Below are positions 1 through 22,684 of a stretch of 22,684 nucleotides of DNA, one piece after another. Each line of letters opens with the position of its first letter. Position 1 is the first letter of the stretch. This DNA comes from a virus. Its lineage: Duplodnaviria; Heunggongvirae; Uroviricota; Caudoviricetes. The notes under the pieces were generated by a model. That model ran no database searches and had not been told where the DNA came from. It was given only the letters and a program-made list of their open reading frames with translations. Location: IMG/VR virus record IMGVR_UViG_2711768076_000014, positions 1 through 22,684 of that record, one strand, 5' to 3'. Made by a program: the position numbers and the translations under genes.

Positions 1-981
1 ATGAACGCAATAATATCGCCCGATTATTACTATGTTCTTACCGTTGCTGGTCAGTCTAATGCCATGGCGTATGGCGAAGGACTGCCATTACCGGACAGGG
101 AAGATGCGCCTCATCCCAGAATTAAACAATTAGCGAGATTTGCGCATACGCATCCCGGAGGCCCGTCATGTCACTTTAACGACATTATTCCACTGACTCA
201 CTGCCCACACGATGTTCAGGATATGCAGGGTTATCACCATCCTCTGGCAACGAATCATCAAACACAGTACGGCACCGTTGGCCAGGCACTGCATATTGCA
301 CGGAAATTACTACCCTTTATTCCTGATAATGCAGGGGTTCTCATCGTTCCATGTTGCCGTGGCGGATCGGCTTTTACCGCGGGCAGCGAAGGGACATATT
401 CAGAACGGCACGGAGCCAGCCATGATGCTTGTCGTTGGGGAACGGATACTCCGCTGTACCAGGATTTAGTCAGCAGAACGCGAGCCGCACTGGCAAAAAA
501 TCCGCAGAACAAATTCCTCGGCGTATGCTGGATGCAAGGCGAATTTGACTTAATGACCAGTGACTACGCGTCACACCCTCAACACTTTAATCATATGGTT
601 GAAGCCTTTCGTAGGGATCTAAAACAATACCATTCTCAGCTTAATAATATTACTGACGCACCGTGGTTTTGCGGCGATACCACCTGGTACTGGAAAGAAA
701 ATTTCCCTCATGCGTATGAAGTTATTTATGGCAATTATCAAAATAATGTTTTAGCCAATATTATTTTCGTCTACTTCCAGCAACAAGGTGAAAGAGGACT
801 GACGAACGCGCCTGATGAAGATCCGGACGATTTAAGCACGGGATATTACGGTTCAGCGTACCGGTCACCGGAGAACTGGACGACGGCACTGCGAAGCAGT
901 CATTTCAACACGGCAGCCCGTCGGGGGATTATTTCTGACAGGTTTGTAGAAGCAATTTTGCAGTTTTGGCGCGAAAAGTGA
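1..981 (+). CDS. nanS: Sialate O-acetylesterase (SGNH-type), NanS/YjhS-like, 326 aa
   Basis: Full ORF with ATG at position 1; N-terminal GQSNAMAYGEG resembles the SGNH/GDS catalytic serine block; sequence matches my recollection of E. coli YjhS/NanS (326 aa). Likely conserved chromosomal flank. Confidence 0.75.
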   Translation: MNAIISPDYYYVLTVAGQSNAMAYGEGLPLPDREDAPHPRIKQLARFAHTHPGGPSCHFNDIIPLTHCPHDVQDMQGYHHPLATNHQTQYGTVGQALHIARKLLPFIPDNAGVLIVPCCRGGSAFTAGSEGTYSERHGASHDACRWGTDTPLYQDLVSRTRAALAKNPQNKFLGVCWMQGEFDLMTSDYASHPQHFNHMVEAFRRDLKQYHSQLNNITDAPWFCGDTTWYWKENFPHAYEVIYGNYQNNVLANIIFVYFQQQGERGLTNAPDEDPDDLSTGYYGSAYRSPENWTTALRSSHFNTAARRGIISDRFVEAILQFWREK

Positions 982-988
982 GCGTTCA

Positions 989-1639
989 TTAATTTGATTT
1001 ATTCGCATCCATCAACGCTTTTAACTCCTCCGGCGTAAACGGTGGTTTGCGTCGGTGCAGCATCGCATGGCAATTAGGGCACACAGGAAGCAAATCATTA
1101 ACTGGATCCAGCTGGTAATCCTCTTTAATGGCTGAAAGCGGCACCAGGTGATGCACATGGATAAAGCCTTCAGCGATATCACCATAGATCTTCACCAGAT
1201 CAACGCCGCATACGTTGCATTGGCATCCATGATGTTCGACCGCTTTATCTCGGGCCTTTTTATCGCGTTCATAGCGGTTTACTGTCACCTTTATCGCCGC
1301 ACCTTCAACGTAGGTCCCCTGCGACGGCAGCTCATCCGGGAACAGAACGTCGGCTATGGGAGCCGCAGCGGCTTTATCCTGATGAATATGAAATCCCTGC
1401 TCTATGAGTAGCTTGACACATTTAGATTTTATTCCGCCGGTGAAATCCGCAGGGGTAAATTGCGTCCCCGTCATCAATGTCGCTGCGATGCCAGCAATCG
1501 CCTTCGAGGGATAACGTCGGCCATGATATTCAATTTCATACAACCGTGCAGGCTGGAACTGATGAGTTTCTCCCGCATCCCATAAATGAATAGCTTCGAT
1601 GATATACCGCCGCGGAAGATGATCGGGGAGTTTATTCAT
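989..1639 (-). CDS. McrA-like HNH endonuclease with an unassigned N-terminal domain (putative modification-dependent restriction enzyme), 216 aa
   Basis: C-terminal CQCNVCG...HVHHLVPLS...PVCPNCHAMLH resembles the EcoKMcrA HNH/zinc-finger core as I recall it; SD-like AAGGA upstream of ATG; stop lies 7 bp from the nanS stop (convergent). Confidence 0.6.
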   Translation of the reverse strand: MNKLPDHLPRRYIIEAIHLWDAGETHQFQPARLYEIEYHGRRYPSKAIAGIAATLMTGTQFTPADFTGGIKSKCVKLLIEQGFHIHQDKAAAAPIADVLFPDELPSQGTYVEGAAIKVTVNRYERDKKARDKAVEHHGCQCNVCGVDLVKIYGDIAEGFIHVHHLVPLSAIKEDYQLDPVNDLLPVCPNCHAMLHRRKPPFTPEELKALMDANKSN

Positions 1640-1718
1640 AGAGAATGTCCTTATACGTTCTCAGAACAAGCAGCAAAAAAACAAATGAGATCAAAGTAAT
1701 ATATCTTCACTTGCAGGC

Positions 1719-1952
1719 TTGAACAGCAGAAAATTTGCGAGCATGATCGCAATTATTTCACTGCCAGGGATATCAATGGCTTCCAGTAAATCGCTACAGC
1801 AGGCAATTGCCAATATAAAAATCTGGCATAAGGGTGAACAGCGCGCACCGCATAAACCATTGTTATTGCTATACGTATTAGCGGGATACCTGAATGGACA
1901 TCCACGCCTTTTCGATTATTGTAGTGGAACAGTCTACGAGGATGCAGTTTGA
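1719..1952 (+). CDS. Hypothetical small protein (77 aa), possible gene remnant
   Basis: ORF only, in the 640-bp gap between the HNH gene start and abiEii stop; no clear SD; coding status uncertain. Confidence 0.15.
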   Translation: MNSRKFASMIAIISLPGISMASSKSLQQAIANIKIWHKGEQRAPHKPLLLLYVLAGYLNGHPRLFDYCSGTVYEDAV

Positions 1953-2017
1953 AGTGAGTAAGTAAAGGTTGCTGGAAACGATCAATGCCGCCATACAATG
2001 ATATTTGAGGATCAACA

Positions 2018-2203
2018 ATGAGTAATAAAAACTACGAAAGTCACCGCAAAGCGATTGTTAGTAAAGGTATACCACCCGCTCTATTAAATAGGCTCACCAA
2101 TTCGGATGTTCAGGTGATCAATACCTTCTTAACACGAGTGAGCAAACTGGAACTATCTCAACAAGAGAAAGACTGGATCATAAAAATCATCTCTATGGTT
2201 TAG
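2018..2203 (+). CDS. Hypothetical small protein (61 aa)
   Basis: ORF preceded by GAGGA about 6 nt before the ATG; no recognisable motif. Confidence 0.25.
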   Translation: MSNKNYESHRKAIVSKGIPPALLNRLTNSDVQVINTFLTRVSKLELSQQEKDWIIKIISMV

Positions 2204-2282
2204 AGAATTTCAGAATTTCAAGTAAAGACAATGCTGCATATCAAGCATTCAGGATGGCTAGCGCTAAGCTCCTAAACCTGGA

Positions 2283-3188
2283 TTAAGCCTCATCCCATGT
2301 GATCTTTCGCTCTCCATACACCATTGGCGAAACAAACTGCTGATAGCGCATCTCGTAGAGAGGATTGTTCGCCAACTCATCCAGTCCCATTTTTAGCTCA
2401 TCAACTGGAGACGCGCAAAACTGCGGGTACTGGTTGCCGTAACGCTGAATGTCCTGCTCAATAGTTTGTTGAACAAAATCAACGAGCAGACTCATATCAA
2501 CATGACTCGTCTCAACAATACAGTTTGTATCGTAGATATGACGTACCAGCGATGCATCATCAAATCGCTCAACATCTCGCACAACTGCCGCAGTACGACG
2601 TAACATCGCCACCAGCTTTTCTGCCTGTGTGCTAATGATAGTTGCGCATGGAAACGCTGAAACAATAGCCGCTTTTCCCGTGATCCCTGTTACCAGTGAA
2701 TGAATATCCCGTAATTCAGAAGGCTCCAGTAACTTCGCTTCCATCAATTCCAGCCGGATAAAAGGACGCAAACAAGGTGCCTGCACTACTCGCTGTGGAT
2801 AACGAACAGGTATGTCATTATAACGATATTCATCCCGCGTCACTTTTGGGTAATCATCATCAAAATTGAACACACCCGATGAAGCTATTGCACTGGAAAC
2901 TGCCTGAACAATTTCTTTACGGGTATTTTTTCGCTGAGTGCGGGAAAGTGCCTGAAATGCATCCTTAGGCACCAGTTTGATATCCACATCTTCCGACATG
3001 CGATTAAGTGCGACACCTGATTTTGCCAGAGCGGTTCCTCCGGCAAACACCAATTGATGAGTATCGAACACCAGAGGTTTAAGCAATTGCAAAAGCTCAA
3101 CGATATAGTGATCTTTTTCCACAATTGCGACAGACTCAATACCAAGCGCGTCAGCCACTTCAGAAAAAAGAGTGGTTAAATCATCCAT
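2283..3188 (-). CDS. AbiEii/AbiGii-family nucleotidyltransferase toxin (type IV TA / abortive infection), 301 aa
   Basis: N-terminal FAGGTALAKSG...RMSEDVDI fits the GS...D.D nucleotidyltransferase motif of the AbiEii/DUF1814 family; start overlaps the upstream wHTH gene stop by 8 bp. Confidence 0.7.
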   Translation of the reverse strand: MDDLTTLFSEVADALGIESVAIVEKDHYIVELLQLLKPLVFDTHQLVFAGGTALAKSGVALNRMSEDVDIKLVPKDAFQALSRTQRKNTRKEIVQAVSSAIASSGVFNFDDDYPKVTRDEYRYNDIPVRYPQRVVQAPCLRPFIRLELMEAKLLEPSELRDIHSLVTGITGKAAIVSAFPCATIISTQAEKLVAMLRRTAAVVRDVERFDDASLVRHIYDTNCIVETSHVDMSLLVDFVQQTIEQDIQRYGNQYPQFCASPVDELKMGLDELANNPLYEMRYQQFVSPMVYGERKITWDEA

Positions 3189-3576
3189 TTAATCTGCTGT
3201 TCCCTACAGATAATACGCGTTTAAAACGCCGGGGGGTTTTTATCTCGGGTGAAGCTGGGATCTGCGTAGAAGTACCGCTATTGTATGCCTGCGTTGCGCC
3301 AGCAAAACGATAGCGTACTTTCAGGCGTTCCAGCGTTTCGACAATCACCGCTGAAGAGCCTCCGGGAGCCGCTGGCATTACCTTGCCTGTAATACCGTTC
3401 CGCCGTGCTTTGGTATACACGCCATAACCAACCTTCAACAGTTGCCCTTCCCTGACAAGCTCGCGCAATACCCGACCAACCTGATCGTAGCCTGCAATAT
3501 CTTTAAAGTCGTCACGAGTGAATACGTAACGTTTAGAACGTTTCAGTCGTGACTGAATGCGTGCTTTTATCGTCAT
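3181..3576 (-). CDS. AbiEi-like antitoxin / winged-HTH transcriptional regulator (about 131 aa from the ATG with SD)
   Basis: MTIKARIQSRLKRSKRYVFTRDDF...VGRVLRELVREGQLLKVGYGVY resembles the AbiEi N-terminal wHTH; GGAGG sits 5 nt before the ATG ending at 3576; the six-frame ORF extends to 3645 but the upstream in-frame ATGs lack an SD. Confidence 0.6.
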   Translation of the reverse strand: MTIKARIQSRLKRSKRYVFTRDDFKDIAGYDQVGRVLRELVREGQLLKVGYGVYTKARRNGITGKVMPAAPGGSSAVIVETLERLKVRYRFAGATQAYNSGTSTQIPASPEIKTPRRFKRVLSVGNSRLNG

Positions 3577-3603
3577 ATTCGCCTCCAGAGTCATTGCATA
3601 AAG

Positions 3604-3646
3604 AGTAGCAAAAATACGACATTTTAGATAGCAAACATACGACATT
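3604..3646 (-). promoter_or_regulatory. Two tandem 20-bp direct repeats (period 23 bp) upstream of abiEi; putative operator/promoter
   Basis: Plus-strand agtagcaaaaatacgacatt (3604-3623) and gatagcaaacatacgacatt (3627-3646) match at 18 of 20 positions, immediately upstream of the SD-supported abiEi start. Confidence 0.4.
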
Positions 3647-4479
3647 CATTTTGCTGATAACGCTGACGGAAAGTGCTTCGCCACGATATCATTCATCTTA
3701 TCCACCAGATCCAGTCGCTTGAAAGTGATATGCCCACTGCCTTTCTGGTAATAGCGGATGACAAATAAATCGTCATCAAATACCTGTTCATGCGGGTGAG
3801 CACTAACGAAGTCCATAAACCGAATCGCAACATCATGCCGGTTATCGGGAATGGCCTTCCCATCCAGCAGATAGAACATACGCTCCAGATCGGCAAGCTG
3901 ATCTCGCCGCCAGCCCCAGTTCAGGCTGTAGCCCCATCTGTCATGCTTCACCAGATTGTTAACGATAATCTTCTTACCGAAATAACAGGGATTATTGGTT
4001 TTGTAGTCCCAGCTCAATCCCTTAAATACATTGATAACCCCACGTTCGAAAACGTCCTGCTTATTGTGGTGAAGTTGTTCAAAGGTACTCAGAATGTTGG
4101 CTTCGCTAATCGCCGGGAGATCGCCCTCTTCCAGGTTCTTTGCCCACTGACTGCGGGCTTCGGCATCCATCAGAGTCAACATCCCAGACTTCAGCATGAG
4201 ATCGCGCCAGATGCTGCGATCGATATTTCGGGTGATCACCGGCATCGCTTTGTCGGTTGGCTGCATCAGCCAGCAGTCAAAGGCATATCCATTTCGCATT
4301 GCCCAGGTTCCAGCCACATCACCGCCAATACTGGATGTCAGGCTGGAGATATCATCAAGTTTTTGGATTAACGCCGCTATCTGGTTCAGTGCACTATCAC
4401 GTCCTGTGACGATACGCTCGATACTGGTCGAGCAAATTAGTTCGTTATGATCGGTTAAGACTTCAGCTTCTGTCTGCAT
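3646..4479 (-). CDS. Hypothetical protein, 277 aa, no family assignable
   Basis: Long ORF filling the space between the hsdM divergent promoter region and the abiE operator; no catalytic motif recognised. Confidence 0.6.
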   Translation of the reverse strand: MQTEAEVLTDHNELICSTSIERIVTGRDSALNQIAALIQKLDDISSLTSSIGGDVAGTWAMRNGYAFDCWLMQPTDKAMPVITRNIDRSIWRDLMLKSGMLTLMDAEARSQWAKNLEEGDLPAISEANILSTFEQLHHNKQDVFERGVINVFKGLSWDYKTNNPCYFGKKIIVNNLVKHDRWGYSLNWGWRRDQLADLERMFYLLDGKAIPDNRHDVAIRFMDFVSAHPHEQVFDDDLFVIRYYQKGSGHITFKRLDLVDKMNDIVAKHFPSALSAK

Positions 4480-4784
4480 AATCTTTCATCCGTAAAAAAT
4501 ACACTCGCCGTTAGTAGCAGACGAATTATCCACTGGTGAAAGATTGGGTAAATAATGAGATTGAAAATCGGGAAGGTGACTCGCAATAAATTATCTGATC
4601 ACCTACGGATGGGCGATGGGCATATAAAGTAGCCTCCTGACTCAAGCGGTGAATGCTGAGTAAGATGCACTAACAATCTGGTACTGAATCCCCTCCTCAC
4701 CGTCATACAAATCTGAAAAACCAAACAACTTCCGGTAAAATCCCGGCAAAAGCCGACGTTAAAAACACATTCAAAGGATAAAAA

Positions 4785-6337
4785 ATGACCAGTCTTCAGC
4801 AGCGCGCGGAGCTTCATCGCCAAATCTGGCAAATTGCTAACGATGTCAGAGGTTCGGTCGATGGATGGGATTTTAAGCAATACGTTCTGGGCGCGCTTTT
4901 CTACCGTTTTATCAGCGAAAATTTTTCCAGCTATATTGAAGCCGGTGATGACAGTATCTGTTATGCGAAACTGGATGACAGCGTAATTACTGATGACATT
5001 AAAGACGATGCCATCAAAACTAAAGGCTACTTCATCTACCCCAGTCAGCTTTTCTGCAACGTAGCTGCGAAAGCAAATACTAATGACAGACTGAATGCAG
5101 ATTTAAACAGCATCTTCGTTGCTATCGAAAGTTCTGCTTACGGTTATCCTTCAGAAGCTGACATCAAAGGTTTGTTTGCTGATTTCGATACCACCAGTAA
5201 CCGCCTGGGTAACACCGTTAAAGATAAAAATGCCCGCCTGGCTGCGGTTCTGAAAGGGGTTGAAGGGTTAAAACTTGGTGACTTCAACGAACATCAGATT
5301 GACCTGTTCGGTGATGCCTATGAGTTCCTGATTTCTAACTATGCGGCAAATGCCGGTAAGTCAGGCGGTGAGTTCTTTACACCGCAGCACGTCTCCAAGC
5401 TGATTGCACAACTGGCTATGCACGGGCAGACCCACGTTAACAAAATCTACGACCCGGCAGCGGGTTCCGGCTCACTGTTGTTGCAGGCGAAAAAACAGTT
5501 TGATAACCATATCATCGAAGAAGGCTTTTTCGGTCAGGAAATCAACCATACGACCTATAACCTGGCGCGTATGAACATGTTTTTGCACAACATCAACTAC
5601 GACAAGTTTGATATCAAGCTTGGCAATACGCTGACTGAACCGCACTTCAGAGATGAAAAACCGTTTGATGCCATCGTTTCTAACCCGCCGTATTCGGTGA
5701 AATGGATTGGCAGCGATGACCCGACGCTGATTAACGATGAGCGTTTTGCCCCGGCTGGCGTTCTGGCCCCCAAATCCAAAGCTGACTTTGCGTTTGTATT
5801 ACATGCGCTGAACTATCTTTCGGCCAAAGGTCGTGCTGCGATTGTCTGCTTCCCGGGTATTTTTTACCGTGGCGGCGCAGAGCAGAAAATCCGTCAGTAT
5901 CTGGTCGATAATAACTATGTCGAAACCGTAATTTCACTGGCTCCGAACCTGTTCTTTGGCACCACCATTGCCGTAAACATTCTGGTTCTGTCCAAACATA
6001 AAACGGATACCAACGTTCAGTTTATTGATGCCAGCGAACTGTTCAAAAAAGAGACCAACAACAATATCCTGACCGATGCCCATATCGAACAAATTATGCA
6101 GGTATTCACCAGCAAGGAAGATGTTGCTCATCTGGCAAAATCTGTCGCGTTTGAAGCCGTTGTAGCGAATGACTATAACCTGTCGGTGAGCAGCTATGTA
6201 GAATCGAAAGATAACCGCGAAATTATCGATATTGCTGAGCTGAATGCAGAACTGAAAACTACGGTCAGCAAAATCGACCAGTTGCGTAAAGATATCGACT
6301 CAATTGTGGCAGAGATTGAAGGTGACGAGGTGCAGGG

Positions 6338-6341
<4 letters not shown>
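4785..6341 (+). CDS. hsdM: Type I restriction-modification N6-adenine DNA methyltransferase subunit HsdM, 518 aa
   Basis: SAM-binding [10 protein letters not shown] and catalytic NPPY ([12 protein letters not shown]); N-terminal HsdM-type domain; 4-bp ATGA overlap with hsdS. Confidence 0.9.
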
Positions 6342-7543
<1,202 letters not shown>

Positions 7544-7665
7544 TTGACCATTGCTACCGATCGGGCCACCTTAACACCCGGTCAGTATATAGACTATTTT
7601 TTTACGCGCCGGAAGTCACTCTTAACGCCCTTCCGGCTCTTGCCAGGCGGCACAAAGGATGCGCT

Positions 7666-10600
7666 ATGACTCATCAAACACACACCATTGCTGAATCCAA
7701 TAACTTTATCGTCCTTGATAAGTACATCAAAGCTGAGCAAACAAGCGACAGCTACCAGAGCGAATCGGACCTGGAACGTGAACTGATTCAGGACCTGCGG
7801 AATCAGGGTTATGAATTTATTTCGGTAAAATCACAGTCAGCGATGCAGGCCAACGTTCGGGAACAGCTTCAGAGCCTCAATGGTGTGGTGTTTAATGACA
7901 GCGAGTGGCGGCGTTTCACGGAGCAGTATCTGGATAACCCGAGCGATGGCATTCTGGATAAGACCCGTAAAATCCATATCGACTATATTTGCGACTTTAT
8001 TTTTGATGACGAGCGTCTTGAGAACATCTATTTGATAGATAAAAAGAATCTCATGCGCAATAAGGTGCAGATTATCCAGCAGTTTGAGCAGGCGGGTTCT
8101 CATGCTAACCGTTATGACGTCACGATCCTGGTTAATGGCTTACCACTGGTACAAATCGAACTGAAAAAGCGCGGCGTGGCGATTCGTGAGGCTTTCAACC
8201 AGATACATCGTTACAGTAAAGAGAGTTTTAACAGCGAAAATTCCCTGTTTAAGTATCTGCAACTGTTTGTCATTTCTAACGGCACCGATACCCGTTACTT
8301 TGCCAACACCACAAAGCGCGATAAAAACAGTTTTGACTTCACCATGAACTGGGCGAAATCAGACAACACGCTGATTAAAGACCTCAAAGATTTTACCGCT
8401 ACCTTTTTCCAGAAACATACTCTGCTTAATGTTCTGGTGAACTACAGCGTGTTCGATATTAGCCAGACGCTACTGGTGATGCGACCGTACCAGATTGCCG
8501 CTACCGAACGGATCTTATGGAAAATCAACAGTTCCTATAAAGCGAAAAACTGGTCTAACCCCGAAAGCGGTGGCTTTATCTGGCACACTACCGGTTCCGG
8601 TAAAACACTGACCAGCTTTAAAGCCGCGCGCCTGGCAACAGAACTGGACTTTATTGATAAAGTCTTCTTTGTGGTCGACAGGAAAGACCTCGATTACCAG
8701 ACGATGAAGGAATATCAGCGTTTTTCCCCAGACAGCGTCAACGGCTCGGAAAATACCGCAGGCCTTAAACGAAATCTGGATAAGGACGATAACAAAATTA
8801 TCGTCACCACTATTCAGAAACTTAATAACCTGATGAAAGCAGAAAGCGACCTGCCTGTATACAATCAGCAAGTGGTGTTTATATTTGATGAATGTCACCG
8901 CAGCCAGTTTGGAGAAGCGCAGAAAAATCTGAAGAAGAAATTCAAACGCTATTATCAGTTTGGTTTTACCGGCACACCTATTTTCCCGGAAAACGCTTTA
9001 GGCTCAGAAACGACCGCCAGCGTATTTGGTCGTGAATTGCATTCATATGTGATTACCGATGCGATTCGTGATGAAAAAGTGCTCAAATTCAAGGTGGACT
9101 ATAACGATGTGCGGCCCCAGTTTAAATCTTTAGAGACAGAAACCGACGAGAAAAAACTGAGTGCGGCTGAAAATCAGCAGGCGTTTCTTCATCCCATGCG
9201 TATACAGGAAATTACGCAATATATTCTGAATAACTTCCGCCAGAAGACCCACCGTACTTTCCCAGGTTCCAAAGGCTTTAATGCCATGCTGGCAGTGAGT
9301 AGCGTGGATGCCGCGAAAGCCTATTACGCGACGTTTAAACGGTTACAAGAGGAAGCAGCTAATAAATCGGCTACCTATAAACCGCTGCGTGTTGCGACAA
9401 TCTTCTCCTTTGCCGCCAATGAAGAACAAAATGCCATTGGTGAAATTTCCGATGAAACTTTTGATACCAGCGCAATGGACAGCAGTGCTAAAGAGTTTCT
9501 TGACGCTGCAATTCGTGAGTATAACAGCTATTTTAAAACTAACTTCAGCACCGACAGTAACGGTTTTCAGAACTACTATCGTGATTTAGCCCAACGGGTT
9601 AAAAATCAGGATATCGATCTGTTAATTGTCGTTGGGATGTTTTTAACCGGCTTCGACGCTCCAACATTGAACACGCTATTCGTCGATAAAAACTTGCGTT
9701 TTCACGGCCTGATGCAGGCATTCTCCCGCACCAACCGCATTTATAACGCCACTAAAACCTTCGGTAACATCGTCACTTTCCGGGATCTGGAACGCTCAAC
9801 CATTGATGCCATAACGCTGTTTGGTGATAAAAATACCAAAAATGTAGTGTTAGAAAAGAGTTATGCAGAGTATATGGAAGGCTTTACTGATGCTGCCACT
9901 GGTGAAGCTAAACGCGGCTTTATGGCAGTAGTTTCAGAACTGGAACAACGGTTCCCTGACCCTGCCAGTATTGAAAGTGAAAAAGAGAAGAAAGACTTCG
10001 TTAAACTGTTTGGTGAATACCTGCGTGCCGAGAACATCCTGCAAAACTATGATGAATTTGCCACGCTGAAAGCCCTGCAACAAATCGATCTTAGCGATCC
10101 TGTTGCGGTAGAAAAATTCAAAGAAGAACATTATGTGGATGATGAAAAGTTCGCTGAATTACAAACGATTCGTCTCCCTGCTGAACGCAAGATTCAGGAT
10201 TATCGTTCTGCCTATAACGATATTCGTGACTGGCAGCGCCGCGAGAAAGAGGCTGGCAAAAAAGAAAAGTTAACTACTGACTGGGATGACGTGGTTTTTG
10301 AAATCGATTTGCTGAAGTCTCAGGAAATAAACCTGGATTATATCCTTGGACTGATTTTCGAACACAACAGACAAAACAAAGGTAAGGGCGAAATGACCGA
10401 AGAGGTCAAGCGCTTAATTCGTTCGAGCCTTGGGAACCGTGCCAAAGAAGGTCTGGTGGTCGATTTTATTCAACAAACAAACCTGGATGATTTGCCGGAT
10501 AAAGCCAGCATCATTGACGCGTTTTTTACCTTTGCTCAACGCGAACAGCAACGTGAAGCAGAAGCATTGATCAAAGAAGAAAATCTCAATGAAGAGGCGG

Positions 10601-10782
10601 CGAAACGCTATATTCGCACGTCTTTAAAACGCGAATACGCCACCGAAAATGGCACGGAATTAAACGAGACATTGCCAAAACTCAGTCCGTTAAATCCGCA
10701 ATATAAGACGAAAAAACAGACGGTTTTCCAGAAGATCGTCGCGTTTATTGAGAAGTTTAAAGGTGTAGGCGGGCAGATATAA
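7666..10782 (+). CDS. hsdR: Type I R-M restriction subunit HsdR (helicase-nuclease), 1038 aa, EcoR124-like
   Basis: Endonuclease-type D...ELK block ([20 protein letters not shown]), Walker A TGSGKT, DECH box ([10 protein letters not shown]); length and N-terminus [20 protein letters not shown] match my recollection of EcoR124I HsdR; separated from hsdS by 122 bp, suggesting its own promoter. Confidence 0.9.
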
Positions 10783-10964
10783 TGTATTAATCCGAACCTG
10801 ATCTGGCAGATAGCTGTCAGATCAGGACTGAGCTAATACAAATTAATATCGAACCGAAAATACCAACGCCTGTACCAACATTTTTCGTTTGCGATGGGTT
10901 GGAATTGGTTAGCCCTGAGAGAGTTAAAATAGCGAGAAAGATAGGTAACTAACGGATTTCAGAC

Positions 10965-11262: not shown

Positions 11263-12210
11263 TTAAATTTCATATTTTGAAATTTCGCTGATTACATCAT
11301 CCCCATATTTCTTAATCATGGAGGCAAAGAATTTATGTTCAATAAATTTCGCATAGCCTAATTCTCCTTTAAGGGTTAGAATTTCTTTCTCAGATAAAAC
11401 CCCACACACATAATAATGTATTTTACTTCTTAAAAGACGCTTTCTATCACGACCTAAAGACAAATAACCATCAGTCGTAATAGTTACACCAGTTACATGT
11501 CTATTAAACTTCCTTGAGGTAAAAACTGTTTTCTCATGGTTTATTTTAATATTCCTAAGATTTACTACGTTAAGAACTTCCCTTACTAACTTAGGAACAT
11601 CAAATAAAGCTCCTTTGACTTTGGTGCTAAACGTAAGATCATCAGCATACCTTGAGTAGGTAATACCCAAATCCTTGCATCTTTTCGATATTTCCTCATC
11701 GAAGAAATACATTACTGTATTTGAAATAATGGGAGAAGAAGGTGCTCCAACACTTAGGCGTAACGGGCTATTTCTTCTTAACTTCCAGAAGAAAAGATTT
11801 TTAAGAACAAAGATATCAGTATCAGTTAGTTCAACGCCATAATCTTTTAAGACAGATAAAAGATTATGGGGTTTGATACTCATAAAAAAGTTTTTAAAAT
11901 CCATTTTAAGCAAATAATCATTATTACAATGCATTAACGCATTAGATCTAATACTTTTATCGGCTTCATAAGCGAAAGCATTTTCATGAACTTTCAAATT
12001 AGCCAACATATGATTGATTACTACCTTCTGTAAGGCTTTAACTTGCCTAGCTGGTTGTGCAATTAATCTATATCCATTACCATTTCTTTTGGCGATAGGA
12101 TAAATTTTATATCTGCGTGGAATAGTAACAATATACCTTTTAGCCTCTTCTTCGCTAAGAAAAAGACCTTTTGAAATATAACTTAGCAACTCCATTCTAA
12201 GCCCCTCCAC
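11263..12210 (-). CDS. Retron-type reverse transcriptase, 315 aa
   Basis: RT blocks YRLIAQPARQVKALQKVV, LKMDFKNFFMSI, SVGAPSSPIISN, YSRYADDLTFS (YADD catalytic box) and VTGVTIT (retron VTG signature); size as for Ec73/Ec86-class retron RTs. Confidence 0.85.
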   Translation of the reverse strand: MEGLRMELLSYISKGLFLSEEEAKRYIVTIPRRYKIYPIAKRNGNGYRLIAQPARQVKALQKVVINHMLANLKVHENAFAYEADKSIRSNALMHCNNDYLLKMDFKNFFMSIKPHNLLSVLKDYGVELTDTDIFVLKNLFFWKLRRNSPLRLSVGAPSSPIISNTVMYFFDEEISKRCKDLGITYSRYADDLTFSTKVKGALFDVPKLVREVLNVVNLRNIKINHEKTVFTSRKFNRHVTGVTITTDGYLSLGRDRKRLLRSKIHYYVCGVLSEKEILTLKGELGYAKFIEHKFFASMIKKYGDDVISEISKYEI

Positions 12211-13183
12211 GCACGATATTGATTTGATTTAGAGCATTTTTCCTTTTTTTTGCAGTCTCGTCCATATCTTTAGCATCCATACTTAAGTAAGATTGTCGGA
12301 TTGCAACCTTAATATTCATAGAATCCTTTATTTTACCACTAGCACTGATACCAAATTTAAGTTTACTCTCTCTATGCCCTCGGGAATAGAAGTAGTCTGT
12401 ACCACTGTAAGATAATGATGAGGTTAATTTCATCTTTTCAAGCAAATAAAGTAAACGAGTTATTATTTTTTGTGGCACATCTATATCCATACAGTATAGT
12501 GCCCACTCTATTTCGCTTTTCTTGATTGGTTCTGATAAAAGGATTATTTCGTAAATCAATATAGCTAGGTGCCCAGTATTTTCAGGGTTATATCGCTCCG
12601 TTTTTTTTACACGTTTTAATCTAGAATGAATATCATGGTAGATAAGCTCAACCTCATCATATTTCATACGATCCGATTTTGGCCATGGATAAACTGATAC
12701 TGAGGCCTCATCTATTTTTTTAAGATACTCCAAAGGGCCTAAATATATAAAAGAAGATCTAGCAGGAATATTTTTTCGTTCATTTCCCTCAATCTCCTCA
12801 AATGGTGCGACTACATGCAATTTTTGAGCTAGAGACTTCCTATTAACAAATAATCCAAGCTCAACTAACGAACCTGCACTTTCTAAACAGATAACAACTA
12901 ATGTTGAAATATTTGCAATATCATCTTCAAAGCTCATTAGATCTGAATATGCCCCCTCTCTGAAGTAGTCATGGAAGTTCTCAGCTAAAATAAGAGAATC
13001 TGACAATTCAGGTTTGTGGCCTGCTACATAAGTAAATATGTGGTCTCGTACACTCATTGGAGTGGAATTTATCGGCCCACCACAAACAAAAATAATAGGA
13101 GGCATGAACTGAACAGTGAAATTTGAATATTTCAAATCTCCAAACTGCTCTTGTAATGCATTCATATATGCAGAATCACTCAC
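12197..13183 (-). CDS. Retron accessory/effector protein (type II-like, possibly nucleoside deoxyribosyltransferase-like plus DNA-binding), 328 aa
   Basis: Lies between the msd hairpin and the RT gene and overlaps the RT start by 14 bp; AT-rich like the RT gene; family assigned by context only. Start is GTG at 13183 or ATG at 13165. Confidence 0.6.
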   Translation of the reverse strand: MSDSAYMNALQEQFGDLKYSNFTVQFMPPIIFVCGGPINSTPMSVRDHIFTYVAGHKPELSDSLILAENFHDYFREGAYSDLMSFEDDIANISTLVVICLESAGSLVELGLFVNRKSLAQKLHVVAPFEEIEGNERKNIPARSSFIYLGPLEYLKKIDEASVSVYPWPKSDRMKYDEVELIYHDIHSRLKRVKKTERYNPENTGHLAILIYEIILLSEPIKKSEIEWALYCMDIDVPQKIITRLLYLLEKMKLTSSLSYSGTDYFYSRGHRESKLKFGISASGKIKDSMNIKVAIRQSYLSMDAKDMDETAKKRKNALNQINIVRGGA

Positions 13184-13204
13184 CCTTGTGACCCCCTACT
13201 CCAA

Positions 13205-13480
13205 AAGAAAAGGTGGCTAACCAGCCACCTTCGACCCCTTTACCTAAAGGATGCGCTTTAGACTTTCAGCAAGATCCTGAATGGAACGCAGTGGCATGAA
13301 GGATCTTGCTGAAAGTGCTAAAGCGCAACCCTAAATGTCCACAATAAATTAGTGTCTGGCGAAACGCCCGACAAGGATAAACCTGTTATCCCGCGCGTAA
13401 AGGTAGGGTTAGGATAGCAAAAGATGCGAGATTTTCAATAAGTAAGCGTACTGGCTGCCAGCAACCACCTAAACCATTGA
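13205..13480 (-). ncRNA. Retron msr-msd non-coding RNA (approximate bounds)
   Basis: Upstream of the effector gene: short stem-loops (ggataa/ttatcc 13374-13390; ggcg/cgcc about 13354-13364; aacccta/tagggtt) typical of msr, plus a 27-bp near-perfect hairpin at 13254..13325 typical of msd; a1/a2 repeats not found with confidence. Confidence 0.5.
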
Positions 13481-13810
13481 CATTTAAACAAAAATAAATC
13501 TAACAATTGAAAGCAATACCTTATTGAATACAGCATTCTTATATCTCTCTTGATATCGCAACATCACAATTATCACCGTTAGTGCGGGCAGCCCCGCACG
13601 CCTGCCCGCTTCGCTTAACAGACTGGTTTTCATGCACCTCATTAATCGTCTCAGAAGCCAGCACACAAGGGTTTTCTCGTCAAAAATGGTGCATAAGACT
13701 CATGCGTTTTCATGCGCCATAGACATGCACTCATGCGCTCTCATGTCAGCCAGGAAAAGGGGGTAAAAAATCCCGGTACTGGACCGGGATTACGTGGGCG
13801 TTCTTTCTAA

Positions 13811-14083
13811 TCAGACAGGAATCTGCTGACGGCTTGACAGTTTTGACGCGGAGCCATAGCGATTGAGCGTTTTCTGTTGTTTTTCCGGGGATTGTGCTTT
13901 GTCTGATAGCTGTTCATTGCGCCGGGGTTTCATGATTATCTTATCCACACTCTCCAGTGCCGTAAATGTGCAGGAACATTCCAGATTCTGGCACTGATAC
14001 CACGAGCGTTTAACTGACGGAGCTTCATAGGCTGCTGTTCTGGCGTGTGCAACTGTACCGCATTCCGGACATTTAAGTGCCAT
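13811..14083 (-). CDS. Ogr/Delta-family zinc-finger late-gene transcriptional activator, about 90 aa
   Basis: MALKCPECG...YQCQNLECSCTF matches the Cys4 Ogr/Delta pattern; AGGAG sits 8 nt before the ATG at 14083 (the six-frame ORF extends to a GTG at 14092). Confidence 0.8.
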   Translation of the reverse strand: MALKCPECGTVAHARTAAYEAPSVKRSWYQCQNLECSCTFTALESVDKIIMKPRRNEQLSDKAQSPEKQQKTLNRYGSASKLSSRQQIPV

Positions 14084-14088
14084 TAATA

Positions 14089-14640
14089 TCACTCCTGTAT
14101 ATCGTTAATGTCATTCAGGCGTTGCTGAAAACGCAGATGTTGTGCCGGGGTGTAAGAACCCTGGCAATCACGAATCATCCCGGGGTCAGGCATCAAACCG
14201 GATTCATCCAGGATCTCACGATAATCCCCGGCAATTTCAGGCGGTGTTATTGCCAGCTGGCGAACCAGAGCACTGCGTAATATACGGGACGCAACGTCAA
14301 CCCCTCCGCGCCCCTTCAGGAACGGAGCCAGTGCAGATGTCAGGGCTGCCCCATTCGCCTGCATAAAATTGCTGAGAGCGGCTTCTGTGCAGGCCTCCAT
14401 CAGTAAATGCTGCGAGTAAATGCATTCGCGCGCAGCACAGTTAATTTGCCATTTCAGCACATCCAGACGTTCCCGCAGTAATTCGAGCTGTCGGGCATAA
14501 TCTGCTGGTTTTTCTGTGGCAGCGAGGAGAGATGTTATCTGTTGTTCAACGGCTTTTCGGCTCTCATTATGTCCGGCCCACAGAATACGGGCATTCCGAA
14601 AACTGGTAAGTGCCTGGTCAGGCGTGCCTCGGGCCGTCAT
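14089..14640 (-). CDS. psu: Psu-like polarity-suppression / capsid-decoration protein, 183 aa
   Basis: Blocks LKWQINCAAR, FMQANGAALTSALAPFL and YTPAQHL resemble my recollection of P4 Psu (190 aa); ATGA overlap with the upstream gene. Confidence 0.55.
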   Translation of the reverse strand: MTARGTPDQALTSFRNARILWAGHNESRKAVEQQITSLLAATEKPADYARQLELLRERLDVLKWQINCAARECIYSQHLLMEACTEAALSNFMQANGAALTSALAPFLKGRGGVDVASRILRSALVRQLAITPPEIAGDYREILDESGLMPDPGMIRDCQGSYTPAQHLRFQQRLNDINDIQE

Positions 14641-15380
14641 ACTGCTTTCTCCTTCTCAGCAAGTTCCTGACGAACCTTAATTTTATGCATAGCTGCCGGA
14701 GAGAGTTGATTACTGAAATCCAGACGCGCCGCATAATCCGGGGCAACTCCCGCCAGTTTAAACACCGGGTCCTGCTCAGGCATCGCATCGTTAGCCAGAG
14801 CCGGTCTGGTGATATGTTTATGAATAAAGTCTTTCAGCACTGTGTCCGGGTCATTAACTGAATTCACCACACCCACAACGGCACTGGCTTCCCGGCCCAT
14901 TGTGGATTTAAGCAGGCTCAGCGTCTGAATAAGCGCTTTTCCATGCGACTGCATAAAATCCTCCCAGATTTGTTTTGCGCGAATATCCACAAGAATGTTA
15001 TGCGCGTGGATATACTTTCCGGCTAATTCTGCAGCTTTCTGCGGCAAAAGTGCATTTTCGCTTTCCTGAGCCGCCAGCAGCTCATCAAAATCCTCAAGCG
15101 TTTCTCGTCCCAGCGCAATTTCCGTGCGCAGTTTTTTCATTTCCTTTGAGACCACGCCCTGACTTTCACGAAACAGCGTGCGCCACTCCTCATTCAGTGT
15201 GTTCGTCGTGGCTTCCATTTCAGCGCGACGCTGGCGGATTGTCGCAATATTATCCGCTGCCGCTTTCTGCTGACGACGTGCTTCAAGCCATGCGTTTCTG
15301 GCTGTGTTCATGGTTTCCAGTGCCCGCTGCGTTACAGCCGGAAAAGTGGAAAGGTTGTTATTCACTGCGGTGTTGTTCAT
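14637..15380 (-). CDS. Sid-like external scaffold (capsid size determination) protein, 247 aa, tentative
   Basis: Size close to P4 Sid (244 aa), Ala/Glu/Arg-rich helical character, first gene of the operon with Psu and Ogr/Delta, preceded by AGGAG and TGT-N12-ACA dyads; no direct motif match recalled. Confidence 0.4.
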   Translation of the reverse strand: MNNTAVNNNLSTFPAVTQRALETMNTARNAWLEARRQQKAAADNIATIRQRRAEMEATTNTLNEEWRTLFRESQGVVSKEMKKLRTEIALGRETLEDFDELLAAQESENALLPQKAAELAGKYIHAHNILVDIRAKQIWEDFMQSHGKALIQTLSLLKSTMGREASAVVGVVNSVNDPDTVLKDFIHKHITRPALANDAMPEQDPVFKLAGVAPDYAARLDFSNQLSPAAMHKIKVRQELAEKEKAV

Positions 15381-15415
15381 GACTTCTCCTGTCGGGTTGG
15401 TTCGTTACGTCAATT

Positions 15416-15471
15416 GTGTCGTGGCTGACACAAGCACACTATCGGTGCTCAGTGTGTGGTGGCTGGCACAA
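15416..15471 (-). promoter_or_regulatory. Two TGT-N12-ACA dyads (putative Ogr/Delta-dependent late promoter of the sid-psu-delta operon)
   Basis: tgtGTCGTGGCTGACaca at 15416-15433 and tgtGTGGTGGCTGGCaca at 15454-15471, 36 to 82 bp upstream of the sid-like ATG; P2/P4 late promoters carry this element. Confidence 0.5.
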
Positions 15472-15558
15472 CGGACGCTTGCGGTTATTCAGACGTGGCT
15501 ATGAAAGCCAGCCAGATAAAAATGCCCTCTGTTTCAGTCTGCTTTATGTCCCTGATGC

Positions 15559-15747
15559 GGTGGAACAGGTGAAACATGTGTTACAGCTTTGTTTTATAAG
15601 GCATTTATATACACTGCACCGGTGGAACATCGCGGGTAACAAGGTGGAACAGCGGATTGGCTGGCGTTACATCTGTTCCACCTCACTATTTCAGAAGGTG
15701 GAACAGGTTCAGCCCTGTAAAATACGGTTGTTCCACCTGTTTCACCT
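15559..15747. repeat. Iteron array: at least 6 copies of GGTGGAACAG / CTGTTCCACC in both orientations (putative ori or crr)
   Basis: Copies at 15559, 15621 (variant), 15643, 15673 (inverted), 15697, 15728 (inverted), plus tgtttcacc at 15739; immediately downstream of the primase gene; resembles the P4 alpha-binding octamer TGTTCACC (from memory). Confidence 0.5.
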
Positions 15748-15780
15748 GTTACCCTTAATAAATAAGACTCACGCAAAGCC

Positions 15781-18453
15781 TTAACCCGGCACCTCGCTGT
15801 TGAAGACATAGAGCCTGCGGGGATTCATCTCTGGCGGGCGAATGGTTGTCTGGAGTTTGCCATCAGTGGAGGGCAGCAGGTATCCACGATCTGCGCACAG
15901 ACGCGCCACCTTGCGCGGGTCAAATCCCCTGCAGATTTCTTTCCAGCCGGACGGCATGACATAGAACGTAGTGACAGCTTCCGTGCCCTGCGCGGTACTG
16001 CCTTTCTCCACCCTGCGCCAGCCCACCATATTGCCGGGGCGGTTGCGCTCGTCATACCAGTCTGCAAAGCGGCTGTACTGATTCGCGGTAAAGAAACTGC
16101 GAACCTGCTCCAGTGCGGCGATATCTTCCTGATTGGCGGTGTGCCCGCGATCTTTCAGCCATGCGTTCAGGCAGACGCGGGTTGCCCGCAGTGCTTCACC
16201 CTCAGGCCAGCCGGTGATACCCAGACGGGTTGCCAGTTCACCTGCCATCGCCACCAGAGCAAAGCGGTTCACAGCCCGGCCCACCTGATTGCCTGCATCT
16301 TTCGGAGTCAGGGCGGCAGCATATTCCTTCATCAGCGATTTTGCCTGTGCCGTTAGTCCGTTAAGATCAGCGGTCAGTGCTTTCAGCCACTCCCGGAACG
16401 GCGAACCGTAGTAGCAGGACGTGGCCCATTCAAGATGCTCTGCCAGAGCCTTGCCGCTGTCGAAGCCGTGCAGCTCCTCAAAAACGCCAAACTTCCCGGA
16501 ATCGCTGGGGATCTGGATCATCCTGACTTCCATCCCGGCAAAAGTACGCTCACCGGCCTTTGCCGCATGTTCGGTCAGAGACAACTCGCCAGTTGAAAAG
16601 AACAACAGGCGCCAATGCTTACGGGTACGCAGCTCACCGTCCGTACCGGCACGGCCCTTGCCCTGACCGTTTGCCAGCATGTAGGCGATATTGCCTGCCT
16701 CGCGTCCGTCAACTTCCCGGATCTCATCAAGCATCATGGCGGCATCGTTGCGGCGGCTGGCGCATCCCTCCAGCGCGTTGCCGGTGGCCCGCCATGTCTG
16801 CCAGTAGTCAGGCCCGCCGCAGACGGAGGTTGCCGCTTTCATGGTGGTGGTCTTACCGTCTGTCGATTCCCCTTTGAGGTGGTAGCCGCCGCCGTCCATA
16901 CCAACCAGCCGTAACAGTGGTGCAGCAAAGGCCAGGCTGACAGCAAATGCCACGCGGGAGTTGCCGGTACAGTAGCGGGATACATGCTCCCGCCATTCCT
17001 CTGTTGTGCCCGACACGCGGAAATCACGCCCCTGCACGGAAGTGGTCTGGAGAATGACACCCTCTGCACCTTCACCGCTGACCTCATCCTGCAGGACGTA
17101 AACCTGACCATGCCAGCCAGTACGACTGACGCAGGTCACGCGGCGTTCCGGTTTACACAGTGAGATATATTCCATCAGGCGTGCGCGTGCCTCACCGGTG
17201 GTGCTGATATAAGACAGCCCGTTAACCAGCAATACCCGGCGCAGTTCCTCACCACTGCCGCTCAGCATTTCCATCGGCATCGCCCAGCGGCGACACTCAC
17301 CCCACGTATCTTCCCATTCCAGCAGTCGTCCGAAGTTACCGCCATCGGCATCGCAGGTGATTGCCGTCACGCGCAGCGGGCTGCATATTTTGACGTTCTG
17401 GATCTCCGTCTCACCGTTGCGCTGTACCTGCTTTTCATACCAGAGATATTCCTGGGTAAGACGGAACCCGTGCGGCAGTTGCGTGCGGCCCTCCCCGCAC
17501 AGCACCAGACCGTTACGAAAGGCTTCACGGGCGCGGGTAATACCGTGCTCCCGATGGAAGTCATTCCAGTCGGCCTTAATCTCTCCCGGTGGCAGCGTCA
17601 TCCAGCCGCCAACAGCTTTTGCCGCCCGTTCAGCAAAGGCTCTGCCGGGATTCTCACCCCCGTCCTGAAAATCGTTATCACCGGCGATGATAATTTTTAC
17701 CTCAGGCCAGCGTGCCCGCAGCGACTGCGCCACATTGGGCAGGTTGCCCGCAGATATGGCAGCCACTACGCATCCGGCAGTGAGCTGACTTACCGTCAGC
17801 GCCGTAGCGTAACCTTCGGTAATCACCACCTGTACCGGTGGTTCAGACGGTAACGGGCTGAGCGACACAAACGCGCCTTTCATCGTGCTGCCGGGCAGTA
17901 TGCTTTTTTCACCCGTCGGGGCGATAAGCTGTGCACCAGTCACGGCTCCGGTGTTGGTCGTGAGTGGTAACAGCAGGGAACCGGCAGGAAAATCCTTACC
18001 GCTGATATGCTGCACGCTTCCGGTCAGAGAGGCCGGGTATCCGGCGAACCCTTTTCCTGTCAGATAGGCGCTTTCTCCCGTGTGGCTCTCTTTCATCAGC
18101 GCCGCCACGGTAAGACCCATGTCGCGTTTAGGGGCTTTTTTTCTGGCAGGCTTAACAGGCAGTTCCTGCACATCCGGCACATTAAGCACCTGCGCCACCT
18201 CCTGCGCAGCCTTTCTGACGCTGTAACCGGTTACGAGCTTAACCAGATCCAGACCGTCACCATTGCCACACTGGCTGCAGATCCACGTCCCGCGCCCGTC
18301 AAGGTCATCAAGGCGAAAACGATCCTTGCCCCCACATTTCGGGCAGGGACCGTGCCTGCCGTTTTCAGGTACATCAATACGCAGCATCTGGAGAATAACG
18401 GGCCATTTCCCCCGTGCGGCGGCTGAAATCTGCGTAACCGTCTGTATTGTCAT
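15781..18453 (-). CDS. Phage/plasmid primase-helicase (P4 alpha-like), 890 aa
   Basis: N-terminal zinc-binding CPKCGGKDRF...CSQCGNGDG, Toprim-like IIAGDNDFQDGGENPG, P-loop GESTDGKTT; largest ORF of the element. Confidence 0.85.
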   Translation of the reverse strand: MTIQTVTQISAAARGKWPVILQMLRIDVPENGRHGPCPKCGGKDRFRLDDLDGRGTWICSQCGNGDGLDLVKLVTGYSVRKAAQEVAQVLNVPDVQELPVKPARKKAPKRDMGLTVAALMKESHTGESAYLTGKGFAGYPASLTGSVQHISGKDFPAGSLLLPLTTNTGAVTGAQLIAPTGEKSILPGSTMKGAFVSLSPLPSEPPVQVVITEGYATALTVSQLTAGCVVAAISAGNLPNVAQSLRARWPEVKIIIAGDNDFQDGGENPGRAFAERAAKAVGGWMTLPPGEIKADWNDFHREHGITRAREAFRNGLVLCGEGRTQLPHGFRLTQEYLWYEKQVQRNGETEIQNVKICSPLRVTAITCDADGGNFGRLLEWEDTWGECRRWAMPMEMLSGSGEELRRVLLVNGLSYISTTGEARARLMEYISLCKPERRVTCVSRTGWHGQVYVLQDEVSGEGAEGVILQTTSVQGRDFRVSGTTEEWREHVSRYCTGNSRVAFAVSLAFAAPLLRLVGMDGGGYHLKGESTDGKTTTMKAATSVCGGPDYWQTWRATGNALEGCASRRNDAAMMLDEIREVDGREAGNIAYMLANGQGKGRAGTDGELRTRKHWRLLFFSTGELSLTEHAAKAGERTFAGMEVRMIQIPSDSGKFGVFEELHGFDSGKALAEHLEWATSCYYGSPFREWLKALTADLNGLTAQAKSLMKEYAAALTPKDAGNQVGRAVNRFALVAMAGELATRLGITGWPEGEALRATRVCLNAWLKDRGHTANQEDIAALEQVRSFFTANQYSRFADWYDERNRPGNMVGWRRVEKGSTAQGTEAVTTFYVMPSGWKEICRGFDPRKVARLCADRGYLLPSTDGKLQTTIRPPEMNPRRLYVFNSEVPG

Positions 18454-21421: not shown

Positions 21422-22684
21422 TTATTTTCCATGCATACGCGCAAAATCATATGGTGTGACAGATCCATTCTTATTAGCATCAATATAATCAGCCCACCAC
21501 TGCAGCATTAATCTTCTTTCTTCAAGATATTCGGAAGTATGCATATATGAACCTTTCACATTTTTTCGTTCAACGTGGCTTAACTGTCTTTCAATGGCAT
21601 CATCATTCCATAGTTTCGACTCACTTAGCGCACCACGCGCCATAGTTCTAAACCCATGACCACATACTTCAGTTTTCGTATCATATCCCATTACACGTAA
21701 GGCGTTATTTACTGTATTTTCACTCATTACTTTTTTAGGATCATGATCGCTGGGAAATATAACCTCACCTTTACCACTCAAGGCATGTAAACGTTTAAAA
21801 ATATCAAATGCTTGTTTGCTAAGCGGAACAATATGTTCAGTTTTCATCTTCATCCCACGCTCAGAGTGTTTTACGCCGGGAATAGGCTTACGAATTCCGG
21901 GTATTGTCCACTCGCTTCGTTCAAAGTTAACCTCACTCCAGCGAGCAAAACGCATCTCACTTGAACGTATAAATGTGAGTAGCGTTAATTCAACGGCAAG
22001 CCGTGTCATTAGTCGCCCTTTATAGCGTGATAGTCTTTCAAGAAGCTCAGGGATTCTTTTTGGGGGTAGTGCTGGGTGGTGGGTTGCTTTAACGCTTAAA
22101 AGCGCTCCAGCCATATCGCATGCAGGATTTGATTCAAGGAGGTCATTCTGCACACCAAAACGCATAATTGCGGTTACGCGCTGCATCAGTCGCTGCGCGA
22201 CATCATGTTTACCCGCCGTATCGACAGCTTTGATTGGATTGAGAAGCTGGCTGGTTCTCAACGTTCTGGCATCGATTTGACCTATCGAGGGGAAAATATA
22301 CTGCTCAAGTGTCAGCAGAACACGACGGCTATGATCTTCGCTCCAAGTAAGGTTACTTGCGTGCCATTGCCTTGCGATAGTTTCAAATAAATATGCCCCC
22401 TCAATTTCAGCTTGTGCCCCCTTTTGCTCAGCTTTGGGGTCAATACCCTGAGACAACAATTTCTTTGCTGCATCGCGCTTACCCCGCGCTTCAGCCAAAG
22501 TGACCGTCGGGTATACACCAAAAGCGAGTCGATCTTCCTTTTTGTCAGAGGGGCGGCGATATTTCATGCGCCAGTACTTAGAACCTTTAGGGGAGACCTC
22601 AAGATACAAACCGCCTCCATCAGCCATTTTATAAGCTTTCTCTTTCGGCTTTGCGGTCTCTATCTGGCGAGCGTTGAGTTTCAT
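21422..22684 (-). CDS. int: P4-type tyrosine integrase, 420 aa
   Basis: N-terminal MKLNARQIETAKPKEKAYKMADGGGLYLEVSPKGSKYWRMKYR is the P4-integrase arm-binding signature; C-terminal catalytic region with HGFRTMARG and a downstream Tyr; start codon at the window edge, tRNA presumably just beyond. Confidence 0.9.
   Translation of the reverse strand: MKLNARQIETAKPKEKAYKMADGGGLYLEVSPKGSKYWRMKYRRPSDKKEDRLAFGVYPTVTLAEARGKRDAAKKLLSQGIDPKAEQKGAQAEIEGAYLFETIARQWHASNLTWSEDHSRRVLLTLEQYIFPSIGQIDARTLRTSQLLNPIKAVDTAGKHDVAQRLMQRVTAIMRFGVQNDLLESNPACDMAGALLSVKATHHPALPPKRIPELLERLSRYKGRLMTRLAVELTLLTFIRSSEMRFARWSEVNFERSEWTIPGIRKPIPGVKHSERGMKMKTEHIVPLSKQAFDIFKRLHALSGKGEVIFPSDHDPKKVMSENTVNNALRVMGYDTKTEVCGHGFRTMARGALSESKLWNDDAIERQLSHVERKNVKGSYMHTSEYLEERRLMLQWWADYIDANKNGSVTPYDFARMHGK

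Follow-up and report, generated by a model that had tools for sequence, protein, structure and literature searches.

A predicted P2-family cos region separates the backbone of a P4-like satellite from its retron cargo in Escherichia coli

We analysed a stretch of 22,684 nt, referred to here as the window, and conclude that positions 13582-13745 on the minus strand are very probably the cos packaging region of a P4-like satellite integrated at a tRNA-Leu gene (leuX). A preliminary description had suggested that a packaging site might lie between delta and a retron, on the grounds of a GC-rich dyad and a cluster of short repeats. Formal homology, position and conservation all support this interpretation and point to a predicted cos function. 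The same site marks the end of the sequence that this satellite shares with relatives carrying other cargo.

The window is an E. coli chromosomal island that contains a P4-like satellite at leuX. Homologues of the integrase, the alpha-type primase, Sid, Psu and Delta are present in a single minus-strand block adjoining tRNA-Leu, the adjacency being read from the annotation of an identical locus. The integrase (21422-22684, with Pfam integrase domains) is followed, by ORF order, by small regulators and then by a primase of the P4 alpha type (15781-18453; zinc ribbon, Toprim and DUF927). Next come a Psu-family protein in the sid position (14637-15380; a weak family match, E = 1.8e-9), psu (14089-14640; Pfam Psu, E = 1e-44) and a delta/ogr-like zinc-finger late-gene activator (13811-14092; Pfam Ogr_Delta, E = 1e-15, and RefSeq annotation of identical copies). 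Full-length ORFs are present for sid, psu, delta, the primase and the integrase. Delta is the final gene of the sid-psu-delta block ahead of cos, and its operon is closed by a terminator-like hairpin on the minus strand (13763-13791), a perfect 9-nt inverted repeat (AATCCCGGT / ACCGGGATT) with a run of six T residues. This hairpin has a mean conservation of 0.885 among 28 satellites and received no call in a consensus terminator scan. P4 has the gene order sid-delta-psu and a 166-aa delta, whereas the window has sid-psu-delta and a single-domain delta of 93 aa. Also in contrast to P4, all modules of the window are co-directional, and the integrase is found on the same side of the element as the primase.

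Beyond the retron module, positions 1-10956 hold a type I restriction-modification system in the order M-S-R (4785-10782), a DUF4942 protein, an AbiEi/AbiEii pair (2283-3645), an HNH protein and the chromosomal nanS gene (1-981). Another genome that has this satellite and retron loses homology at window position 10956 and instead carries a membrane protein and a phosphorothioate-dependent restriction enzyme there.

To relate the region downstream of delta to known packaging sites, we compared it with phage sequences at several levels of sensitivity. At the default E-value, blastn of positions 13200-15800 against the phage collection gave no matches. A permissive search with positions 13550-13680 (E <= 10) gave weak matches in P2-like phages, namely Fels-2, RE2010, Escherichia phage 500465-1, SopEPhi and Klebsiella and Yersinia peduoviruses. 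In Fels-2, RE2010 and 500465-1 the matching stretch has the replication/tum (DinI) genes on one side and the portal gene on the other, which is the position of cos in P2 and 186, whose records start and end at the annotated cohesive ends. We then searched the window with a profile HMM built from 130 distinct cos regions of P2-like helpers and from no satellites, the helpers being defined by a portal, terminase or gpA gene nearby and by the absence of psu, sid and delta. This helper-only profile matched the window once, at 13735-13570 on the minus strand (60.1 bits, E = 2.2e-18), and the match spans both the repeats and the GC-rich segment. Alignment to the P2/P4 cos regions was therefore successful, and the partial similarity to the P2/P4 cohesive end that the preliminary description had proposed was seen both against the P2, P4 and 186 records and in the profile search.

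The homologous segment can be delimited by an ungapped register, TGCAT-[T/G]AAAACC-N37-right box, that is common to P2, P4, 186, Fels-2, RE2010 and 31 P4-like satellites from E. coli genomes and IMG/VR. A 55-bp cos core of P2 and P4 was reportedly defined by Ziermann and Calendar in 1990. The concept of this core is cited in two later papers (PMC5694545, PMC3931495). In the window the 55-bp core occupies 13582-13636 on the minus strand, as supported by the register, by conservation and by the helper-only HMM. It consists of TGCAT (13636-13632), GAAAACC (13631-13625), the N37 interval (13624-13588) and the right box CCGCAC (13587-13582). The left box reads TGCATGAAAACC at 13636-13625, without variation among 28 satellites and with the identical sequence in the Fels-2-type helpers. 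The best-conserved recognition box, GGTGCATGAAAACC at 13625-13638, had been missed at first reading. The G-rich motif GGCG(A/T)GGCGGGG, expected after AAGCGGGC(A/G), is present as AAGCGGGCAGGCGTG-CGGGG with one G fewer. The distance of 37 nt between the AAAACC box and the right box is kept despite a pair of +5/-5 indels. The core is located at the end of the satellite gene block, with variable cargo next to it. An ORF of 60 aa (13484-13666, minus strand) that overlaps cos had no family match and was treated as spurious.

The cos core is the most conserved segment of the region, with a mean column conservation of 0.949 in 28 distinct satellites. The GCAT cluster upstream of it reaches 0.919, the spacer between cluster and core 0.875 and the delta coding sequence 0.854, and conservation drops to 0.51 just past the right box.

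Comparison with the cos regions of P4 (NC_001609) and P2 (NC_001895) revealed a shared organization and differences in detail. The position of cos is shared, behind the final late gene of the sid/psu/delta block and ahead of non-essential cargo, and all three have the TGCAT-[T/G]AAAACC-N37-right box register, the G-rich GGCG.G.CGGGG motif and an upstream GCAT triplet. The window differs in that identity over the core is only 60%, in that it carries a second copy of AAGCG and has CTG in place of AAAGCAC, the A-rich part of the 19-nt end, in that the right box is CCGCAC rather than GCGCGC, and in that the triplet is 2 nt nearer to the core. The closest helper match is the cos of Fels-2, RE2010 and Escherichia phage 500465-1 (186-like Peduoviridae). 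With these the window shares an identical GGTGCATGAAAACCA, a nearly identical AAGCGGGCAGGCGTG(G)CGGGG, a triplet region with 74% identity and the presence of variable cargo past the right box. The helpers have ATACGAG where the window has CTG, lack the AAGCG duplication, keep GCGCGC and have a hairpin between triplet and core, whereas the spacer of the window is unrelated. A Fels-2-type cos occurs in 855 of the 5426 complete E. coli genomes, so plausible helpers are common, their specificity for this satellite being putative. At least one genome, that of strain 504211, carries a Fels-2-type prophage together with a satellite of the window's clade.

The differences from the Fels-2-type helpers define a variant that characterizes the satellite clade. 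AAGCG is duplicated (AAGCGAAGCGGGCA), which adds 5 nt, and the cohesive-end segment loses one G and four further bases (GGCGTG-CGGGG-CTG versus GGCGTGGCGGGGATACGAG), so that the total of 37 nt remains exact. Such exact compensation argues for selection on the geometry between the two boxes and thereby suggests that the site is used. Because of the duplication and the 5-nt loss, the cut positions are not transferable by analogy. The P2 cutting register, together with the annotated P2 and 186 cos ends, predicts a 19-nt cohesive end, 5'-GGGCAGGCGTGCGGGGCTG, at 13589-13607 on the minus strand, while in an alternative register based on similarity the predicted end would begin at GGCGTGCGGGG (13602). 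A gapped alignment would point to a shortened cohesive end, whereas the ungapped N37 register predicts otherwise. The right box is relaxed in this clade. CCGCAC in the window matches GCGCGC in 4 of 6 positions; of 104 helpers, 93 keep GCGCGC and 103 keep GCGCG, and other members of the satellite clade have GCACGC, TCGCGC or GCGTGC. In IMG/VR all 26 instances of the clade's cos type adjoin satellite genes, about 207 nt downstream of delta, and none has a plain helper context. No helper with the AAGCG-duplicated type was seen, the listed helper cores being only of the P2, 186 and Fels-2 types. In phage 500465-1 (positions 3055-3075 of the locus analysed) cos reads GGCGTGCGGGG, with one G fewer than in Fels-2 and 186; this phage thus shares the 1-nt deletion of the satellite clade in the G-rich motif, either as a real variant or through a homopolymer sequencing error.

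The elements on which the original proposal had been based could now be placed relative to the core. The nested GC-rich dyad exists, but not at 13573-13599, where it had been placed: the 28-nt sequence gtgcgggcagccccgcacgcctgcccgc is located at 13582-13609, a shift of 9-10 nt. It comprises two overlapping perfect inverted repeats, GCGGGCAG/CTGCCCGC (arms 13584-13591 and 13602-13609, 10 nt apart) and GTGCGGG/CCCGCAC (arms 13582-13588 and 13593-13599, 4 nt apart). The dyad overlaps the G-rich cos segment and the right box, and thus accounts for no more than the right third of the core. Its fold in single-stranded form is only moderately more stable than those of shuffled sequences (z = -2.3 and -1.9). 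In relatives it is not conserved as a dyad, being absent or weaker (z = -0.06 at one related locus, L008). It is perfect in the window because the two substitutions in the right box (CCGCAC) create the complementarity.

The repeats are likewise present. TCATGCG occurs exactly as described at 13700, 13710 and 13731 on the plus strand, all within 38 bp, and these are three of the seven copies in the 22.7 kb; the related copies at 13723 (ACATGCA) and 13741 (TCATGTC) were also found. The proposed 10-bp phasing is roughly correct for four of the five copies (0, 10, 31, 41), and the copy at 13723 is off phase. Since the start-to-start spacings are 10, 13, 8 and 10, the helical phasing is approximate only. 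Read on the minus strand, the copies at 13700, 13710 and 13723 correspond to a GCAT(G) triplet (13701-13728) with GCATG at 13728-13724, 13715-13711 and 13705-13701. The pattern GCATG-N8-GCATG-N5-GCATG (13728-13701) occurs once in the window and in none of 100 shuffles. The triplet lies at -97/-84/-74 relative to the GAAAACC box, compared to -98/-86/-76 in P2 and -99/-86/-76 in P4, 186, Fels-2 and Escherichia phage 500465-1. In 137 distinct upstream regions of P2-family cos sites, GCAT is found at -99, -86 and -76 in 73, 82 and 87%, respectively, and no other GCAT offset reaches 10%. Family-wide conservation is thus limited to three of the five repeat copies. The triplet is nearly invariant across 28 satellites, and the spacer between triplet and core shows 25-48% identity between reference groups. 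The additional CATGA/CGCATGA copies (13731-13747, minus strand), which correspond to the repeats at 13731 and 13741, are clade-specific and less conserved, and GCAT at -105 is present in part of the satellites only. The repeat unit of the triplet is the TGCAT of the core, with GCATGAAAAC present at both places in the window, and an inverted copy of the GGTGCAT box is found at 13688-13694 on the plus strand, forming an inverted repeat with 13632-13638. The genes upstream of the triplet vary, being old in P2, orf97 in 186, psu in P4 and delta in the window. That its offset is nonetheless fixed indicates that the triplet belongs to cos and not to the neighbouring gene. By analogy, the triplet is most likely an accessory binding array for the small subunit of terminase, resembling cosB. 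The likeness to cosN/cosB of lambda is one of functional analogy only, consisting in a nicking site with a one-sided array of short repeated sites; there is no sequence relationship, and no IHF site was identified. The searchable literature yielded no footprint or mutational evidence for the triplet and no paper on cosB-type sites in P2-like phages.

Both the dyad and the repeats could in principle serve functions unrelated to packaging. With its two perfect inverted repeats, its moderately stable fold and its position between two transcription units, the dyad might be taken for a hairpin that terminates transcription or insulates the retron from the delta operon, its role in cos being incidental. 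This can be rejected for an intrinsic (Rho-independent) terminator, because neither strand has a T-run after the stem and the terminator scan makes no call. The delta operon, moreover, is already closed by the separate hairpin and T6 run described above, and the dyad depends on the window's own right-box variant and is lost in relatives in which the underlying sequence is kept as the cos core, so that we regard a terminator or insulator role as highly improbable. Somewhat better placed, yet still improbable in our judgement, is the idea that the CATGCG/GCAT repeats are operators controlling the late operon or the retron, or else a replication element. Operators and iterons typically consist of short direct repeats with helical spacing, and in P2 the first copy of the triplet lies near the promoter region of old, where transcript starts are annotated at 33424/33426. 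Against such a role, the distance between triplet and core is fixed in helpers and satellites that differ in upstream genes and in downstream cargo, the repeat unit is the core's own TGCAT box, and the ori/crr repeats of P4 are annotated elsewhere in P4 and form a different repeat set. At about 33453-33480 of P2, the first GCAT of the triplet is found just upstream of the annotated old-tin transcript starts on the minus strand and may therefore overlap the old promoter.

The preliminary description had further reasoned that a packaging site at this position would place the retron in the post-cos cargo, and this is what we found. A megablast search with positions 13400-13900 matched 847 of 5426 complete E. 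coli genomes, 156 of them over the whole stretch. In the remaining approximately 690 genomes, which have different downstream genes, the match extends from the delta side and ends at 13569-13592. As identity with these satellites ends at the right box, the retron is the first cargo after cos. We fetched four of the other loci (L008-L011), which include the canonical P4 arrangement as well as the co-directional one, and found unrelated cargo past the boundary in each. The alternative cargo comprises ABC-three-component proteins, SIR2 with an ATPase, an AAA ATPase and hypothetical proteins.

On the window's side of this boundary the cargo starts with an AT-rich segment without similarity to other satellites (13439-13581; conservation 0.51). 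The retron module follows on the minus strand, with a promoter-like site at 13438-13411 and a candidate msr-msd ncRNA at 13200-13412, the predicted fold of which (-90.6 kcal/mol, z = -7.4) has a closing helix, two small hairpins and one long perfect hairpin. A search of the whole window, including the retron RNA, against Rfam at gathering thresholds returned no family. The protein-coding part (11263-13183) consists of a retron St85-family effector (12197-13183) and a reverse transcriptase (11263-12210; also Pfam RVT_1), and its matches to NF038232 (E = 3.5e-66) and NF038233 (E = 7.9e-100) are both past the NCBIfam cut-offs.

A defence hotspot in P4-like satellites was reportedly described in 2022 by Rousset and co-workers and by de Sousa and Rocha. 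The P4 hotspot directly adjoins cos and contains retrons (PMC9122126). The retronphage phiR73 is packaged with the help of P2, and the retrons Ec67 and Ec86 adjoin 186-like cos sites; retrons beside cos have been known since phiR73 and Dodd and Egan 1996 (PMC6868368). Cos-adjacent defence hotspots and retrons beside cos are thus already published, and the window is an ordinary case. It shares with the P4 hotspot that the cargo starts directly at cos and that related elements carry many alternative systems in its place, but its cargo occupies the stretch from cos to the far end of the island instead of that between cos and int, and further defence genes (type I restriction-modification, AbiE) follow up to nanS. 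With phiR73 (retron Ec73, a P4-like satellite) and with Ec67 and Ec86 (in 186-related prophages) it shares retron cargo beside a P2/P4-family cos. It differs from phiR73, which we compared by its published description, in the retron family (St85 in the window) and in the integration site, leuX instead of selC.

Continued mobility of the window copy is uncertain. With at most 4 mismatches allowed, a search of the window and of the identical NZ_AP021890.1 locus gave no further copy of the 20-nt att core that leuX and P4 share, nor did either contain an exact repeat of at least 12 nt that could represent attR. As no attR is recognisable, this copy may be fixed and unable to excise. It is therefore conceivable, if rather doubtful, that the site is a relic which descended from cos but is nonfunctional in this copy, within a fixed and decaying leuX island whose cos is kept only through recent common descent. 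Such a view would fit the lack of an attR copy of the att core over the approximately 22 kb up to the chromosomal nanS, the two substitutions in the right box, the interruption of the element by IS1 in one genome with an identical locus and the identity of at least 99% among the 156 genomes with the exact arrangement, which would agree with clonal inheritance. However, this copy follows the clade consensus in the left box, the G-rich segment and the triplet, all of which are intact, and the sid, psu, delta, primase and integrase genes, as noted, show no truncation. The right box also varies in other members of the clade, which makes its degeneracy a trait of the clade rather than a decay of this copy.

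If the site works as those of P2 and P4 do, packaging would begin with late-gene expression by a P2-family helper, most likely one of the Fels-2/186 type. The helper terminase (small subunit gpM and large subunit gpP) would recognise the TGCAT-GAAAACC box and the G-rich core segment and introduce staggered nicks that leave 5' cohesive ends, and the satellite genome would be packaged into Sid-remodelled capsids. The upstream GCAT triplet, in which TGCAT is repeated at a fixed distance, would most likely provide extra sites for the small subunit of terminase, as cosB does in lambda. Everything beyond the right box, beginning with the retron, would be carried along as exchangeable cargo. The identity of the binding protein, the positions of the cuts and continued cleavage of this particular copy are what we infer from this analogy, while homology, register, position, conservation and the homology break can be read directly from the alignments. 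The boundary at about 13582 marks off the satellite backbone from exchangeable defence cargo and explains the position of the retron. It also provides testable coordinates of a packaging signal for a satellite clade that is very common in E. coli (about 850 of 5426 complete genomes).

The fixed offset of the GCAT triplet and the compensated cos variant found only in satellites are minor leads. We tentatively put forward, as a possibility that we hold to be the less probable one, that the variant is a cos allele private to the satellite clade and the triplet, found at fixed offsets in essentially all enterobacterial P2-family cos regions, an as yet uncharacterised, cosB-like array for terminase loading. 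If this were true and the helper terminase cut the site, the nick positions, the sequence and perhaps the length of the cohesive end would differ from those of the helper. The P2-family terminase would then measure from the flanking boxes without reading the sequence at the nicks. Triplet and variant could also aid the design of P2/P4-based cosmid delivery vectors and the prediction of compatibility between satellites and helpers.

Lastly, two IMG/VR records (IMGVR_UViG_2912071112_000001, L038, and IMGVR_UViG_2721755834_000006, L039) have satellite sid and delta genes upstream of a satellite-type cos core and, approximately 1.8-2.8 kb downstream of the core on the opposite strand, an ORF resembling the P2 portal gpQ (63% identity). 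This layout of cos, cargo and portal is that of helpers, and the two records may represent recombinants between satellite and helper that were joined at cos.
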